Made by a program: the position numbers and the translations under genes
DNA from: Opitutia bacterium KCR 482
GTDB lineage: Bacteria; Verrucomicrobiota; Verrucomicrobiia; Opitutales; Intestinicryptomonadaceae
Direction of reading: 5' to 3'
DNA length: 32,000 nucleotides
NCBI GenBank assembly: GCA_029269845.2
Contig: CP149973.1
Location: 1,110,001 to 1,142,000, forward strand
Part shown: one piece after another, positions 5,961 to 17,309 of the stretch
How the letters are laid out: every line of letters starts with the position of its first letter
How positions within the stretch are numbered: position 1 is the stretch's first letter
Notes under the pieces: generated by a model
The model's database searches: none
The model's input: the letters and a program-made list of their open reading frames with translations, nothing else
What the model was told of the DNA's origin: nothing

Positions 5961-5976
5961 GGAGATTTTACGATTC

Positions 5977-6004
5977 TTGAAAAAAACGGCAATCGGCATA
6001 CTAA
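5977..6004 (+). promoter_or_regulatory. Candidate sigma70-like promoter firing into the structured spacer upstream of glgP
   Basis: TTGAAA (5977-5982), a 16-nt spacer and TACTAA (5999-6004). It sits back-to-back with the tRNA-Arg candidate promoter. The spacer contains the CGGCAATCGGC motif. Confidence 0.3.
5987..5997 (+). repeat. 11-nt motif CGGCAATCGGC (copy 1 of 3)
   Basis: It matches CGGCAATCCGC, found twice on the minus strand beside element copy B, at 10 of 11 positions. Its orientation relative to the structured element is the same. Confidence 0.5.
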
Positions 6005-6034
6005 TTAAAAAAATTACACGCATAGAGCGTGCAC

Positions 6035-6168
6035 GGGGGGACAGGCGGAAATTTTCGCGGTAGCGAAAACCGCCTTTTGGGGGCGGCAACCCCCTCCGTT
6101 GGCGTCAAGGCTCCAGCCTTGGGGGAGCGGGTGGTGAATTTCGCAACGCGAAATCCACCCCATGGGGG
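6035..6168 (+). repeat. Periodic G-tract and hairpin array
   Basis: G tracts lie at 6035-6040 (G6), 6079-6083, 6121-6125 and 6164-6168 (G5 each). Their starts are spaced 44, 42 and 43 nt apart. The intervals are filled by hairpins: H1 6044-6074, H2 6079-6094, H3 6107-6120 and H4 6130-6159. Confidence 0.6.
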
Positions 6169-6189
6169 ACACCGCATTTTACGCTCAAT

Positions 6190-6330
6190 GCGCGGCAACG
6201 CCGCGCTGCTTAGGCTTGTCAAGTTGCGTATAGAAATGTGGCTTTGCGCAGTGAGGCGTAGGGAGCGTACTTAACGTACGTGACCAAGCCGCAACAAGCG
6301 AAACGCATTTCTATGCCAGCTTCACAAGCC
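6190..6330 (+). ncRNA. Unclassified structured element, copy A (candidate sRNA, leader or REP-like repeat)
   Basis: It folds as a long irregular hairpin with helices P1-P5. It is about 77% identical, by hand alignment, to the reverse complement of 8935-9076, with 9 compensatory pair changes. G.U pairs exist only in the plus-strand reading. Confidence 0.45.
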
Positions 6331-6346
6331 CCCCCCCCGAAAATGC

Positions 6347-6374
6347 TTGTAATGGGAAATGGGCTACTTATAGT
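6347..6374 (+). promoter_or_regulatory. Candidate sigma70-like promoter for glgP
   Basis: TTGTAA (6347-6352), a 16-nt spacer and TATAGT (6369-6374), about 30 nt upstream of the glgP ATG at 6404. Confidence 0.4.
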
Positions 6375-6403: not shown

Positions 6404-8905
6404 ATGAGCAAAGACAAAGCCAACATTAAAGCAAAGTCGGACGAAAAGATTTTCACCGACGCGAATTCCTGTCCGTTTTTTGTAAGCGACAACACCGAAG
6501 GAATGAAAAAGGCAATCCTTTGGCATCTCGAAACGTCGCTCGCGCGCGACCGCAAGACGGCGTCCATGCGCGACTGGTGGGTTGCGTCAGCCCTCTCCGT
6601 GCGCGACCATATCATGAAGCGGTTCATCAAAACGATGAACAAGCAGTACGAAGGCGACGCCCGCAGAGTATACTATTTCTCGCTCGAATACCTCGTCGGC
6701 AGACTCACCGAAGACGTGCTCGTAAACACGCACCTGCTCGAACCCACAAAGGACGCGCTTAAATCTCTCGGAGTAGACCCCGACGAAGTAATAGCGCAGG
6801 AGGTCGATATGGGCTTGGGCAACGGCGGCCTCGGCAGACTCGCCGCGTGCTTCCAGGACTCTCTCGCAACGCTGAACTACCCCGCAGTCGGCTACGGAAT
6901 CAGATACGAATTCGGTCTGTTTACGCAGTCGTTCGAAGACGGCAGACAGGTTGAATCGCCAGACAACTGGCTTAAATTCGGCTGCCCGTGGGAAATCGTC
7001 CGCCCGCAGAGAACGGTTAGAGTGCCCGTGGGAGGCACAGTCAAAGGAATGATGGACGACAAGGGCGACTGGTCGCCCGTCTGGAAGCCCGTCAACGAAA
7101 TTCTCGGCGTTCCGTGGGACATTCCCGTCGTCGGATACGGCGCGGAAACGGTAAACTTCCTCAGGCTTTGGGAATCGAGGGCGTCGAACGAGTTCGATCT
7201 CGACGCCTTCAACGAGGGCGGCTACACGCAGGCCGTCCACGAAAAGGCGATGAGCGAAACTATATCCAAGGTGCTCTACCCGAACGACAAAACCGAAAAC
7301 GGCAAATACCTAAGGCTTCTCCAACAGTACTTCTTCGTGTCGTGCTCGTTGCAGGACATTATCCGCAGATACATATCGGAACACGCCGACTGGTCGAAAT
7401 TCACCGACAAAGTCGTAATACAGCTCAACGACACGCACCCTGCAATCGCAATCCCCGAACTCATGCGCCTGCTCATGGACGTGCACGGGCTTTCGTGGGA
7501 CGAATCGTGGGCTATGTGCACAAAGATTTTCGCCTACACAAACCACACGCTTCTGCCCGAAGCTCTGGAAAAGTGGTCGGTAAACTTCTTCGAAAAGCTG
7601 CTGCCGCGCCACCTGCAAATCATCTACGAAATCAACGCCCGCTGGATGGACAAGGTCAACAAAATGTACCCCGCCGACCCACACAAGCGCGAATGCCTCT
7701 CCATTATAGAGGAAAGCTCGCCGAAGATGGTGCGCATGGCGTATCTGGCGGTCGTGGGAAGCTTCAGCGTGAACGGCGTCGCCGCGCTCCACACGGAGCT
7801 TCTCAAAGACTCGGTTCTGCGCGACTTCTACGAAGTCTCGCCCGAAAAATTCAACAACAAGACAAACGGCGTCACGCCGCGCCGCTGGCTTAAAGTCTGC
7901 AACCCCGGGCTTTCGTCGCTCATCGACACGAAAATCGGCGACAAGTGCTGGGTCAAGAACCTCGACGACCTGCGCGCGCTCGAAAAATACGCCGACGACC
8001 CGTCGTTCCAAGACAAGTTCATGGCGGTAAAGCTCGAAAACAAAAAGAAGCTCGCCGCGGTAATCAGGAACTCCTGCGGGGTGGAGGTAAACCCGAACGC
8101 GCTCTTCGACGTGCAAATAAAGCGTCTGCACGAGTACAAGAGACAGCACCTCAACCTGCTCCACATTCTCACGCTCTACCGCGCCCTTCTGCACAACCCC
8201 GACATGGACATTCCCCCGCGCGTGTTCATCTTCGGCGCAAAGGCGGCTCCCGGCTACGACATCGCAAAGAACATCATCTACGCAATCAACAAAGTCGGCG
8301 AAAAAATCAACTCCGACAAGCGCATAAACGGCAAGCTCAAAGTTGTGTTCATTCCCAATTACAGCGTGTCGGCGGCGATGAACATCATTCCCGCGGCGGA
8401 CGTTTCGGAACAGATTTCGACGGCAGGCAAAGAGGCGTCGGGCACGGGCAACATGAAGCTTGCGCTCAACGGCGCGGTGACGCTCGGCACGCTCGACGGC
8501 GCTAACGTGGAAATCAAGGAGGAAGTCGGCGACGACAACATCTTCATCTTCGGACTTACGGTCGAGGAGGTGCAAAAGCTCAAAGGCGGCGGCTACAATC
8601 CGTGGGAATACTACGCCAAGAACGCAAACCTCAAAGACGTTCTCGACTGGCTTGTGTCCGACTATTTCATGCCGTCGAACCCCAACGCCTTCATGCCTAT
8701 GCGCAAGTCGATTCTCGACTGGGGCGACAACTTCATGGTTTGCGCCGACTATCAGGCATACTGCGACGCGCAACAGCGCGTTGGAGAGGCGTTCATGGAC
8801 AAACGCCGCTGGGCGAAAATGGCGATTATGAACACCGCGCGAATCGGCAAGTTTTCTTCCGACCGCACAATCCGCGAGTACGCCGAAGACATCTGGAAGT
8901 TGTAG
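6404..8905 (+). CDS. glgP: Glycogen/maltodextrin phosphorylase (GT35)
   Basis: 833-aa ORF. The pyridoxal-phosphate lysine motif [28 protein letters not shown] is present, and the family-typical N-terminal region reads [10 protein letters not shown]. Confidence 0.95.
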
Positions 8906-8910
8906 GATTA

Positions 8911-8921
8911 GCGGATTGCCG
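8911..8921 (-). repeat. 11-nt motif CGGCAATCCGC (copy 3 of 3, 3' flank of element copy B)
   Basis: The plus strand reads GCGGATTGCCG. It is identical to 9102-9112. It lies between the glgP stop codon and copy B. Confidence 0.5.
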
Positions 8922-8934
8922 AGAGCTTCCTTTG

Positions 8935-9076
8935 GGCGCGTGAAAATGGGCAAAATAAAGGCGTTTCGCTTGCTGCGGCTTGGTCATGTACATAAGTACA
9001 CTCCCGTCGCCTCGCCGCGCAAAGCCGCCTTTCTTTACCCGTTTTGACGCGCCTAAGCAGCTTGGCTTCGCCAAGC
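8935..9076 (-). ncRNA. Unclassified structured element, copy B (inverted relative to copy A)
   Basis: The reverse complement aligns with 6190-6330 and has the same P1-P5 architecture. The 25-nt core at 8961-8985 differs from 6282-6306 at one position. Confidence 0.45.
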
Positions 9077-9101
9077 GATGAGTTTTTAGACGTTGTTATT
9101 T

Positions 9102-9112
9102 GCGGATTGCCG
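9102..9112 (-). repeat. 11-nt motif CGGCAATCCGC (copy 2 of 3, 5' flank of element copy B)
   Basis: It is an exact direct repeat of 8911-8921, 191 nt away. Confidence 0.5.
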
Positions 9113-9244: not shown

Positions 9245-11266
9245 CTATTTGTAGAAGCGCAAGATTACAGGCTCGAAAACTTCCGCGCGGACTGGCACGG
9301 AAATCTTTTTGTCGGCGTCCTGCGCGAATTCCACCTTGCGCCACTTGCCGTCGCCGCCGAGCATTTCGGCTTTCGTAAAGCTCTTTGTAGAGCCGAACGT
9401 AAGCGGCGAAATCGGGTCGATTCCGACTGTCGTAAAGACGACGAATTCCGAGCCGTCGTCGAGGGTGAAGTTTTTCAGGTAAACTTCGGCGTCGCCGTCG
9501 TACCACACCGAGAACGGCGCGAGTTTATTGAACAGCAAAACATACTGCGCCTTGCGCGATTCCGTCAAATGGTTCGGTCCCTGCGGCAGCGAGCCGAAAA
9601 CGACAACCCTGCCGCCGAGCGAATTTTCGAAATACGTCGAGGCTGGCGCGAGATATTCGGCGAGTTTTTTGTCGCCGTATGTGTACGGCAGGTGAATGAA
9701 GTCGGAGTAAACCAGCGTTTTTTCGGACAGCGGTTCGAGCTTGAACGCGGTCGTCGGAGGCTCGCAGAATTTTCCCGCCGCCTCGCCGCAATTTGCGCCG
9801 AAGCGCTCGCGCGTGATTTTTACGGACTTGTCCCACGGCGAAACTTTCACGCCCGTGTGTCTGCCCAGCCCGCGGTTTTGGATTTCAAGCGCGGCTGCGC
9901 CGTCGAGCACGCAGCCGAGCGAGAGCACCCTTTCAAGCTCGGCGTTCGAGAGCCTTTTCGCCGTGCTTCCGCGCAGAAACGCGGGGCGGTCGAGCTTCGA
10001 AATTTCCGTGTACGAAACAGGCAGCCCCATGACGCCCGTTATCGAATCCCAAAACGAGTCGTTGCCCATTTGCAGGGTTTCGCCGCGCCGCAGAGTGGTG
10101 AACGAAGGCGCGACAATTTCGGTAAGCCCTACGCGTTTCGAGCGGCGGAAACAGCGCAGAATTTCGTCGTACATGCCCCTGTTTTCGGCGAGGATTTTCT
10201 TGTACGCCCCGCCGCTTTCCGGTTCGTAGTCTACAAAGCGGTTCGGCCAGTATTTCGCGCCGCTCGCGCCTTCGAGAATCGAAACGACAAGTCCGGCGTG
10301 GAGCGTGCGCGCGCTTGTGAAATAGCGGTTTCGCGGAAAGGTGTCTATTTCGGCGTAAACGCGGTCGGGCTTGGCTGCGACGTTTTGCACCACAAGCTGG
10401 CGGGCGGTGAAGTAGAGGTCGCGGCATTTCGGGTTGTAGTAGCGGGCGTTGCCGATTCGCAAAACGGAGGGCTGCCCCTTTGCGGCGAGGGTGCGGGCGA
10501 TTTTGCCGTCGTGCATCATGTCGGCGGGCGAGCCACACATAAGGCAGGGGATTGTCGGGTCGACGGAGTCTATCGCCTCCCTTATGATTTTCGCAAGTTC
10601 GACGAGGGATTCGCCGTCCACCGCCATCGCCGCGGCGGAAATTTTTTTGTCGAGCTCGGAGCTTCCCGCGAGGTGTTTTTTGAGCTGCTCCCGGGTGAGG
10701 TCGTAGCCGAAATCGCGTTTGAGCTTCGCCAAATGGAGCGGGCAGAGGCAGCCGTTGCGCCCGCCCATCACGCGGAAGTCGTCGTCGACCATAATCGCCG
10801 CGGGCTTGAGTTTTGCGACGCGCACAACGCATTCGCGGATATATTTGCGGAAGTTTTCGTCGAGCGGGCAGACGATGTTTTTCGTCCAGCCGCCGACGCC
10901 GTCGTCGCGCGAGACGAGCTGCCGGAACGGGTGCGGAACTTCAAGCTCGAAGCCGTGCCCGAGGGTTGCCTGCAAGATGATTCCCGTCTTGCAGTCGGCG
11001 TTGCCAATCGCGTTCCGCAGGCGTTTGTACTTTTCCTCGTAGAGCGAAATTTTGTCGAACGGCGGATTGCCCTCGGGCACTAGAAAAAACGAAACCATGT
11101 GAATGTCTGCGACATTTTCGGCGGACATTTTCTTCAAGTCCTCCGCCTGTTTCTCCACCGTTTCGTCGAAAAGCATCACGAGGTCGAGAATCTCGACCCT
11201 GTCCGACGCCGCCTGCGCGGACATCGCGGCAATCCCTCCGCATAAAATCGCAAATAATTTTTTCAT
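9245..11266 (-). CDS. Secreted protein of unknown function, possibly a GH42-like TIM-barrel glycoside hydrolase
   Basis: This is the 686-aa ORF of the track. I prefer the internal start at 11266 (MKKLFAILCGGIAAMSAQAAS, a signal peptide), which gives 673 aa. Segments CPLDENFRKY and GCLCPLHLAKLKRDFGY resemble the Cys-cluster region of GH42-type enzymes. That comparison is from memory only. Confidence 0.8.
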   Translation of the reverse strand: MKKLFAILCGGIAAMSAQAASDRVEILDLVMLFDETVEKQAEDLKKMSAENVADIHMVSFFLVPEGNPPFDKISLYEEKYKRLRNAIGNADCKTGIILQATLGHGFELEVPHPFRQLVSRDDGVGGWTKNIVCPLDENFRKYIRECVVRVAKLKPAAIMVDDDFRVMGGRNGCLCPLHLAKLKRDFGYDLTREQLKKHLAGSSELDKKISAAAMAVDGESLVELAKIIREAIDSVDPTIPCLMCGSPADMMHDGKIARTLAAKGQPSVLRIGNARYYNPKCRDLYFTARQLVVQNVAAKPDRVYAEIDTFPRNRYFTSARTLHAGLVVSILEGASGAKYWPNRFVDYEPESGGAYKKILAENRGMYDEILRCFRRSKRVGLTEIVAPSFTTLRRGETLQMGNDSFWDSITGVMGLPVSYTEISKLDRPAFLRGSTAKRLSNAELERVLSLGCVLDGAAALEIQNRGLGRHTGVKVSPWDKSVKITRERFGANCGEAAGKFCEPPTTAFKLEPLSEKTLVYSDFIHLPYTYGDKKLAEYLAPASTYFENSLGGRVVVFGSLPQGPNHLTESRKAQYVLLFNKLAPFSVWYDGDAEVYLKNFTLDDGSEFVVFTTVGIDPISPLTFGSTKSFTKAEMLGGDGKWRKVEFAQDADKKISVPVRAEVFEPVILRFYK

Positions 11267-15408: not shown

Positions 15409-15578
15409 GGACACTCAGACGGCGATTTCACGCACTTGCGTGGCGCAGGGCACACGCGGATTTCCCTATGCATAGTAGTTGACGAAACGCCCTACTAAAC
15501 TTTTATCCCAACGCACTCTAAAAATCTTCGTGCGCAAGCACTCTAATTTTAGGCGCGTTAGAGCGCCGTGATATTTGG

Positions 15579-15629: not shown

Positions 15630-17309
<1,680 letters not shown>

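Follow-up and report, generated by a model that had tools for sequence, protein, structure and literature searches.

Repetitive extragenic palindromes (REPs) and miniature inverted-repeat transposable elements (MITEs) usually occur in tens to hundreds of copies, and MITE-like elements suitable for comparison include Correia/NEMIS, ERIC/IRU, RUP and BOX. A REP is defined by a GTAG or CGTC tetranucleotide at one end of its stem-loop, and Opitutus terrae, which also belongs to the Verrucomicrobia, is known to have REP families (PMC3733652). In REP doublets forming hairpins (REPINs), compensatory changes have been described as common (PMC3116915). Here we analyze a stretch of 32,000 nucleotides of Opitutia bacterium KCR 482 (contig CP149973.1, positions 1,110,001 to 1,142,000), referred to as the window, in which two inverted and diverged copies of a structured element, module E, bracket glgP. 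Our results suggest that module E belongs to a new family of palindromic mosaic repeats that is low in copy number, restricted to one lineage and either mobile or prone to recombination, closest in kind to REPINs, bacterial interspersed mosaic elements (BIMEs) and hairpin MITEs; we consider this reading probable, though by a distance not certain. The family is filed here as a member of this general kind of repeat and in neither of the named families (REP, classical MITE).

The two copies, A at 6190–6330 (+) and B at 8935–9076 (−), and the features that belong to them are as follows.

6190–6206, + strand: P1 of copy A, GCGCGGC AAC GCCGCGC.
6213–6330, + strand: long irregular hairpin of copy A (module E, type A), which contains the conserved core 6282–6306.
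6325–6334, + strand: poly-C tract of 10 C, beginning in the final bases of the 3′ arm of copy A.
6404–8905, + strand: glgP (glycogen/starch phosphorylase), between the two inverted copies.
8906–8934, − strand: tail of copy B, beginning 1 nt past the glgP stop codon.
8908–8921, − strand: downstream direct-repeat copy CGGCAATCCGCTAAT, inside the tail of copy B.
8935–9053, − strand: long irregular hairpin of copy B (module E, type B).
9060–9076, − strand: P1 of copy B, GCTTGGC GAA GCCAAGC; on the + strand it continues into GATGAGTTTTT.
9077–9112, − strand: leader of copy B, TCTAAAAACTCATC, together with the upstream direct-repeat copy CGGCAATCCGCAAAT (9099–9112).

The original prediction, made from the letters of the window, had described a two-copy structured RNA linked to glgP, and its description of the pair itself is borne out. 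A repeat search located both copies where they had been placed, as inverted repeats 6184–6273/8993–9082 and 6276–6333/8934–8991, each 76% complementary. In a structure-aware alignment 112 of 149 columns are identical, with 37 substitutions and three gap columns (about 110 of about 143 with three gaps had been claimed). Both copies share the long-hairpin fold that had been drawn for them, P1 followed by a single long irregular hairpin, at −74.9 kcal/mol for copy A (z −7.3) and −74.4 kcal/mol for copy B (z −6.2), and for each copy none of 200 shuffles folded as well. Structural alignment shows 10 base pairs altered on both sides between the copies with pairing preserved, where nine had been counted, and the U·G pair at 6239/6291 of copy A is indeed C-G in copy B. 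The 25-nt core (6282–6306), described as near-identical in the two copies, matches exactly two sites in the window, one perfectly and the other with a single mismatch, where chance would give 0. With Rfam 15, the gathering score was reached in the window by two tRNAs only, and nothing matched over either copy up to E = 10, in line with the earlier statement that no signature motifs of RNase P, tmRNA, SRP, 6S or common riboswitches are present. A protein-coding reading was rejected, as the three 1-nt gaps between the copies and the indels in other copies disrupt any frame.

Evidence that the fold is maintained comes from covariation across 11 copies, nine of them added to the pair in the window, which represent five sequence types (A, b, B, B′ and E2) and give 50 consensus pairs and 550 pair cells. 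Standard pairs fill 96.4% of the cells, and double changes occur in 19 of the 50 pairs (48 cells); none of 500 shuffles reached these pairing and double-change values. As a control, sliding the partner by 1–3 columns lowered pairing to 30–43%. In E2 nearly all of P2–P4 has been rewritten, with TTAGG, GTCAA, GGCTTTGCG, GCGAAACGC and TTCAC retained. The hairpin is kept by compensation and the constraint acts on the fold, and the non-neutral, structured divergence first proposed from two copies extends to the enlarged set. The internal C·C mismatch (GTCAA/TTCAC), which had been reported as kept in both copies, is found in all five sequence types; this part of the claim stands, but in copy A of several strains the mismatch is a C-G pair (TTGAC). 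An outer helix P0 (TTAGGC/GCCTAA) that would close a three-way junction was tried and rejected: of six extended copies that were folded, one (L017; loci in related assemblies are cited by such numbers) has this helix in its minimum-energy structure.

Module E is dispersed within its lineage. We scanned one genome per species and metagenome assemblies for the exact core, and also searched viral contigs and plasmid and phage collections. The species-level scan yielded four extra copies, all on four contigs of the fragmented metagenome-assembled genome (MAG) Opitutia bacterium UBA4654 (Verrucomicrobiota), and genuine copies in the metagenome scan came from assembly OGFM01 only (L006, L010 and L017, strain variants of the same loci). 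A fifth locus, the one upstream of glgP, was seen solely in assemblies of the lineage other than UBA4654. A profile search added a full-length, far-diverged member, E2, at L010 8178–8330. All copies lie within one species-level lineage (MAG UBA4654, assembly OGFM01), and a covariance-model search and core count, both suggested as checks in the original prediction, found further copies in a single lineage only. Another 14 metagenome loci with a 21-nt core were dismissed as chance matches, being mostly coding-like sequence with no common fold. The covariance model found no match in ~140 kb of sister-species loci; viral contigs gave 81 gapped-pattern chance matches, none of which fits the covariance model, and 0 matches to the core of module X described below; BLAST against the plasmid and phage collections gave no match. 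The element sits behind at least five unrelated genes other than glgP, and the glgP-linked framing of the original prediction does not survive: E is a module of a dispersed mosaic repeat.

The window holds three relatives, namely copies A and B and the following stub.

15482–15575, + strand: degenerate E2-type relative, with an E2-type leader, P1 GTGCGCAAGCAC, TTTTAGG and a collapsed hairpin, GGCGCG TTAGA GCGCC.

The two genes on either side of this stub are co-directional, and the stub closely precedes a promoter-like site, TTGACG..TAATAAT, of the gene starting at 15630, whose 559-aa product matches a glutaminyl-tRNA synthetase-family gene of the sister loci.

Comparison with orthologous regions in relatives demonstrates that the sites can be empty. 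The sister species (L022; GlgP 88% identical) has kept tRNA-Arg beside glgP, with a 205-nt spacer and the same promoter-like box, ATGCTTGTAATGG-N-TATAGT; it contains no X, Y or E module, and an ordinary terminator directly follows glgP. The site downstream of glgP is also empty in L026. In another relative (L122; RecA 96% identical) the recA/GH42 spacer measures 123 nt and contains a terminator only, compared with ~480 nt in L003 and ~630 nt in L010. Filled and empty orthologous sites, a criterion used for MITEs, were therefore found upstream of glgP, downstream of glgP and at recA/GH42. The arrays are insertions, and the lack of the element in close relatives, at the orthologous spacers of both glgP and recA, again speaks against a tie to glgP. 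In a further Opitutales species (L028 12500–13120), ~50-nt inverted repeats bracket a ~540-nt AT-rich segment just downstream of glgP; either an invertible segment or a MITE of unrelated origin could account for it.

Within the lineage, the arrays differ between strains whose GlgP is identical to that of the window (L116–L118) or 98% identical (L006, L114). In L116 and L118, copy B has collapsed to a short stem with a hybrid P1, and the whole inner part, including the 25-nt core, is gone. The upstream array of L117 is tandem-duplicated (X-Y-half E-X-Y-E), with a similar duplication in L006, and copy A of L114 is cut to a stub, GGCGCGGCTCGCGCC..CTTCACAAGCC, a form also present at the recA locus of L010. 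Between L017 and L004, which represent OGFM01 and UBA4654, E stands in opposite orientation between the same two genes, and inverted copies of the segment's 3′ end, CAGCTTCACAAGCCC-AAG..CTTGGG, delimit it on both sides. These loci were also compared with an inverton, a programmed invertible segment that occurs in both orientations between fixed inverted repeats. The content differs as well (X is absent and the ends are different), by which a simple inversion was rejected as the entire difference; no recombinase was seen at these loci. Copies that are collapsed, duplicated, truncated or inverted in this way are hard to reconcile with a fixed partner of glgP.

One insertion could be delimited in more detail. 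At L010 1585–1850, compared with L003, a 265-bp unit lies inside the final recA codons with an 8-bp duplication, CTTCTTCG (a single case). It changes the acidic C-terminal tail of RecA from ..EEEAEA to ..EEDSEG, with a new stop codon supplied by the element's TTAG, and the ends of the insert have just TTCCG...CCAAGC in common. Several short-read contigs terminate inside X or E. Two further rearrangements were noted at glgP loci. At L114 2700–2950, tRNA-Arg together with its promoter region has the opposite orientation with respect to glgP, and the sequence from a ParA-like ATPase gene to the tRNA differs; at L006 4110–4160 (also in L111), a 13-nt direct duplication, AAACGCCTTTTAT, borders a 34-nt insertion in the 3′ arm of copy B.

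Module E is embedded in composite arrays, and the upstream array of the window contains these additional modules.

5978–6014, + strand: R-type leader TTGAAAAAAACGGCAATCGGCATACTAATTAAAAAAATTACAC ahead of the upstream array, with a recurring CGGCAATCSGC core; the same leader occurs at L002, L003, L004 and L010.
6015–6126, + strand: module X, a separate structured repeat with its core GGCGGAAATTTTCGCGGTAGCGAAAACCGCC at 6044–6074.
6127–6169, + strand: module Y, hairpin GGTGGTGAATTTCGCAACGCGAAATCCACC, found in the glgP-upstream array only and duplicated along with X in L117.

On the strand that reads from P1 into E, hereafter the forward strand of the element, the arrays run in the order optional palindrome (AAAAAATGCGGANGCATTTTTT, of the form A6TGC..GCAT6), R leader (CAAAACGGCWATCCGCATACTAATCTAAAAACTYCAT), often X (Y upstream of glgP), R, P1, E, a small hairpin (CCCAAG-N5-8-CTTGGG) and a tail, which is a degenerate copy of the R core (GGGCWATSCGCTAA). 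Module X recurs upstream of E at three other loci (recA, nitroreductase and glycoside hydrolase) and comprises hairpins, some nested and some adjacent, at 6015–6033 (terminator-like on the − strand), GGGGG/CCCCC and AAGGC/GCCTT. Neither X nor Y matches Rfam. Copy B is bounded by an 11–15-nt direct repeat, CGGCAATCCGC(W)AA(Y), in three strains, and the other copies have the degenerate tail only. The R core was also considered as a native, widespread terminator targeted by the element; this was rejected, as CGGCAATCCGC has only chance intragenic matches outside the arrays. Divergent from the array, the promoter-like site of tRNA-Arg, TTGCCG-N16-TAAAAT (5965–5992, −), has a −35 hexamer drawn from the reverse complement of the R core (CGGCAATC).

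The position of the arrays relative to genes is tightly defined. Of the eight full-length copies, seven have a tail that lies 0–31 nt from a convergent stop codon; the genes concerned are glgP, recA (two copies, L003 and L010), a nitroreductase-family gene, a cation-efflux gene, an MGH1-like glycoside hydrolase and a CitMHS transporter, the stop codon of which falls inside the E2 stem. Along the sense strand of the gene, the stop codon is followed by the small hairpin, the long hairpin, P1, a conserved ATGGAG or GATGAG, and finally a T-run. A terminator scan gave terminator-like calls at 9060–9076 (+), which is P1 of copy B downstream of glgP, and at 6033–6015 (−); a gap of 6–7 nt precedes the T-run, while in canonical terminators of this genome the hairpin is directly followed by it. 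Because no terminator intervenes after the stop codon, the strand opposite to the forward strand is almost certainly transcribed as 3′ untranslated region (UTR), to judge from position, yet the strand that folds better is the other one. Retrons, diversity-generating retroelements, bridge RNAs and omega RNAs were considered as candidate identities; no reverse transcriptase or insertion sequence (IS) gene was seen beside any copy examined. Beyond copy B, 9245–11265 (−) encodes a 673-aa protein with no Pfam match, conserved beside mazG and ygjP in the sister species.

The situation upstream of glgP is different in that a promoter separates copy A from the gene.

6347–6374, + strand: glgP promoter-like site TTGTAA-N16-TATAGT, starting ~15 nt downstream of the end of copy A.

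All strains, and likewise the sister species without the element, have a single such site at each glgP locus, and a near-identical box is present in another species. Copy A is probably outside the glgP transcript and its 5′ UTR, because the conserved box lies downstream of it. The poly-C homopolymer that runs from the end of copy A (6–10 C among strains) stands between the copy and the −35-like box, ~12 nt upstream of the promoter.

We then propose a model for the family. Module E would be the core hairpin of a lineage-specific, non-autonomous repeat, whose arrays were inserted into the intergenic DNA of one Opitutia lineage and go on changing by hairpin collapse, tandem duplication, inversion and replacement. 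The stems would covary because a folded hairpin with fixed internal loops must be preserved, be it as single-stranded DNA (ssDNA) during mobilisation, as a transcript, or as both. The flanking of glgP by two copies would be incidental. Copy B would lie in the 3′ UTR of glgP, where its P1 and T-run may help to end or protect the transcript. The analysis demonstrates membership in the family, covariation, empty sites in relatives, polymorphism among strains and the placement relative to genes, whereas the mechanism of mobility, a mobilising enzyme and any effect on transcript 3′ ends are inferred.

Several observations weigh against a mobile repeat. No transposase, REP-associated tyrosine transposase (RAYT) or recombinase was seen at the loci examined, as distinct from the whole genome; there is no evident pairing of classical terminal inverted repeats with target-site duplications next to them, the one 8-bp duplication, in recA, being a single case; and the copy number is low, ~5–6 loci per genome by exact core, a scan that diverged members (E2, stubs) elude. 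G·U pairs outnumber A·C mismatches by 38 to 9 cells (11 vs 4 columns), and the forward strand, antisense to the adjacent gene at most loci, is the more stable one in 8 of 11 copies (for type b copies with tails the two strands do not differ in stability); the repeat model does not explain this. A protein-binding RNA, too, would be expected to combine covarying stems with asymmetric internal loops that are conserved. Furthermore, copy B is 97.3% identical between the window and UBA4654, compared with 94.4% for third codon positions of glgP, a difference that is not significant and hints at constraint at most.

Much of this would suit a family of small structured RNA genes, transcribed on the forward strand from the R leader and starting at or near P1, in which the loops GGCUUUGCG/GCGAAACGC and the 25-nt core may serve as a protein- or RNA-binding platform and which could have spread by duplication or in mobile cassettes. 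The fixed loops between covarying stems, the low copy number, the stability of the forward strand and the wobble bias, with one U·G pair invariant in 11 of 11 copies and one G·U pair in 10 of 11, all fit, as does a conserved leader ahead of every module, which in the window reads TTGAAA-N16-TACTAA. We nevertheless regard such RNA genes as unlikely: no canonical terminator follows E on the forward strand, the promoter-like hexamers are weak and do not line up when the leaders of E and E2 are compared, Rfam gives no match, and the copies are dispensable, being collapsed or deleted in strains with identical GlgP and absent from the sister species. It is similarly doubtful that E is primarily a 3′-end module used by the host on the opposite strand, co-transcribed with the upstream gene and only secondarily mobile. 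Its function would then lie in its orientation and its place behind stop codons, with the long hairpin acting as a barrier to 3′ exonucleases or as a substrate of RNase III, and P1 with the T-run ending the transcript. The placement of seven of eight full copies 0–31 nt behind a convergent stop codon with no terminator between argues for it. Every module on that strand ends in a hairpin and T-run (the two terminator-like calls among them), these are kept at the start of X although the hairpin sequence varies between loci, and the sole stub between co-directional genes (15482–15575) has the non-terminating orientation. However, the conserved 6–7 nt between P1 and the T-run are unlike canonical terminators of the genome, copy A has neither an upstream gene on the opposite strand nor a T-run after P1, ordinary terminators suffice in the sister species, and the wobble bias points to the other strand. 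Both of these explanations are compatible with mobility. It is also tempting to speculate that E, and perhaps X, are mobile cassettes encoding a structured nucleic acid (RNA or ssDNA hairpin) docked by a lineage-specific enzyme that would home the cassette to the first nucleotides after stop codons; the invariant loops GGCUUUGCG/GCGAAACGC, the GUCAA/UUCAC C·C mismatch and the 25-nt core would form the docking site. Such homing, to which we assign an equally small chance, would if true be a targeting mode distinct from RAYT/REP, integron attC and group IIC introns, which insert after terminators.

Two further explanations are less probable still. Intrastrand template switching or arm-to-arm gene conversion could mimic compensatory change with no structural selection at all, and the repair of the copy A C·C mismatch to C-G in several strains, the collapse of hairpins into short perfect stems and the hybrid P1 in L116 are what such self-correction would leave. 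Asymmetry should then vanish, yet the asymmetric inner third, the bulges and the C·C mismatch persist in five diverged types, and loop sequences are more conserved than stems, making this account quite improbable. The least credible, with only a very slight chance, is a cis-regulatory leader or riboswitch of glgP. Copy A does share the strand of glgP and precedes its start codon by 74 nt; however, the conserved promoter box falls between the two, the sister species with the same promoter has no element, copy A of L114 is a stub with promoter box and gene intact, and other copies stand behind unrelated genes. We therefore retain the mosaic-repeat reading as the preferred one. The caveat in the original prediction that a MITE might be involved pointed in the better direction, though the classical picture of dozens of copies with clean terminal inverted repeats and target-site duplications does not fit either.

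Together, our results define a family of mosaic repeats, not described before, in an uncultured lineage of Opitutia (Verrucomicrobiota). The family breaks assemblies, alters the final recA codons in one strain, occupies 3′ UTRs of core genes and appears to drive local inversions and duplications. It illustrates that solid covariation can arise in a repeat family without marking a dedicated regulatory RNA, and that covariation between two copies alone is not evidence for a riboswitch or a small RNA gene. Should an enzyme recognising the hairpin be identified, the element's precise stop-codon-proximal placement could be of mechanistic interest.

Among known systems, RNAs of the 6S, SRP and Y RNA type resemble module E in their long hairpin, conserved internal loops and covarying stems. 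They differ from it in that E is multicopy, strain-variable, dispensable and absent from the sister species, with no Rfam match up to E = 10 and no terminator on the better-folding strand. Integron attC sites are likewise imperfect hairpins of 60–140 nt behind open reading frames (ORFs) that keep structure over sequence and have conserved unpaired bases, and TTAGGC/GCCTAA resemble the GTTRRRY/RYYYAAC boxes. An attC identity was rejected: the box order is reversed (TTAGGC...GCCTAA), the two copies around glgP stand in inverted and not direct orientation, the adjacent genes have housekeeping roles and are not cassettes, and neither an integrase nor attI was seen. With MITE-like elements, module E shares units of 100–270 bp with long hairpins, insertion beside genes and co-transcription with them, possible promoter- or terminator-like parts, variability between strains and assembly breaks. 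In contrast to MITEs, its inverted arms are internal and not terminal, with P1, leader and tail outside the arms yet within the repeated unit; no consistent target-site duplication adjoins the arms, the arrays are modular and split by a repeated leader, and the placement at stop codons is very tight.

The comparison with REPINs, and with the REP-BIME mosaics mobilised by IS200/IS605-like RAYT transposases, is the closest, with clear differences. No GTAG or CGTC stands at a stem end in the 11 aligned copies (CGTC occurs solely inside the P2 arm of types B and E2, with TGTC in A and b and CTTC in B′). The unit is one 118-nt hairpin and not two REPs of 20–40 nt, the exact core marks ~5–6 loci per genome and not tens to hundreds, the loci examined (loci only) carry no RAYT gene, which in REP systems is a single-copy gene with the repeats on both sides, and copy B has an 11–15-nt flanking direct repeat. 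Like REPINs, these are intergenic imperfect palindromes that can form long hairpins in ssDNA or mRNA, stand in mosaic clusters near gene 3′ ends, and differ in presence or absence and in orientation between strains. The inverted arms P2 and P3 carry compensatory changes around a conserved, non-palindromic centre, and asymmetric remnants are left behind, here in the form of stubs that keep TTCACAAGCC.

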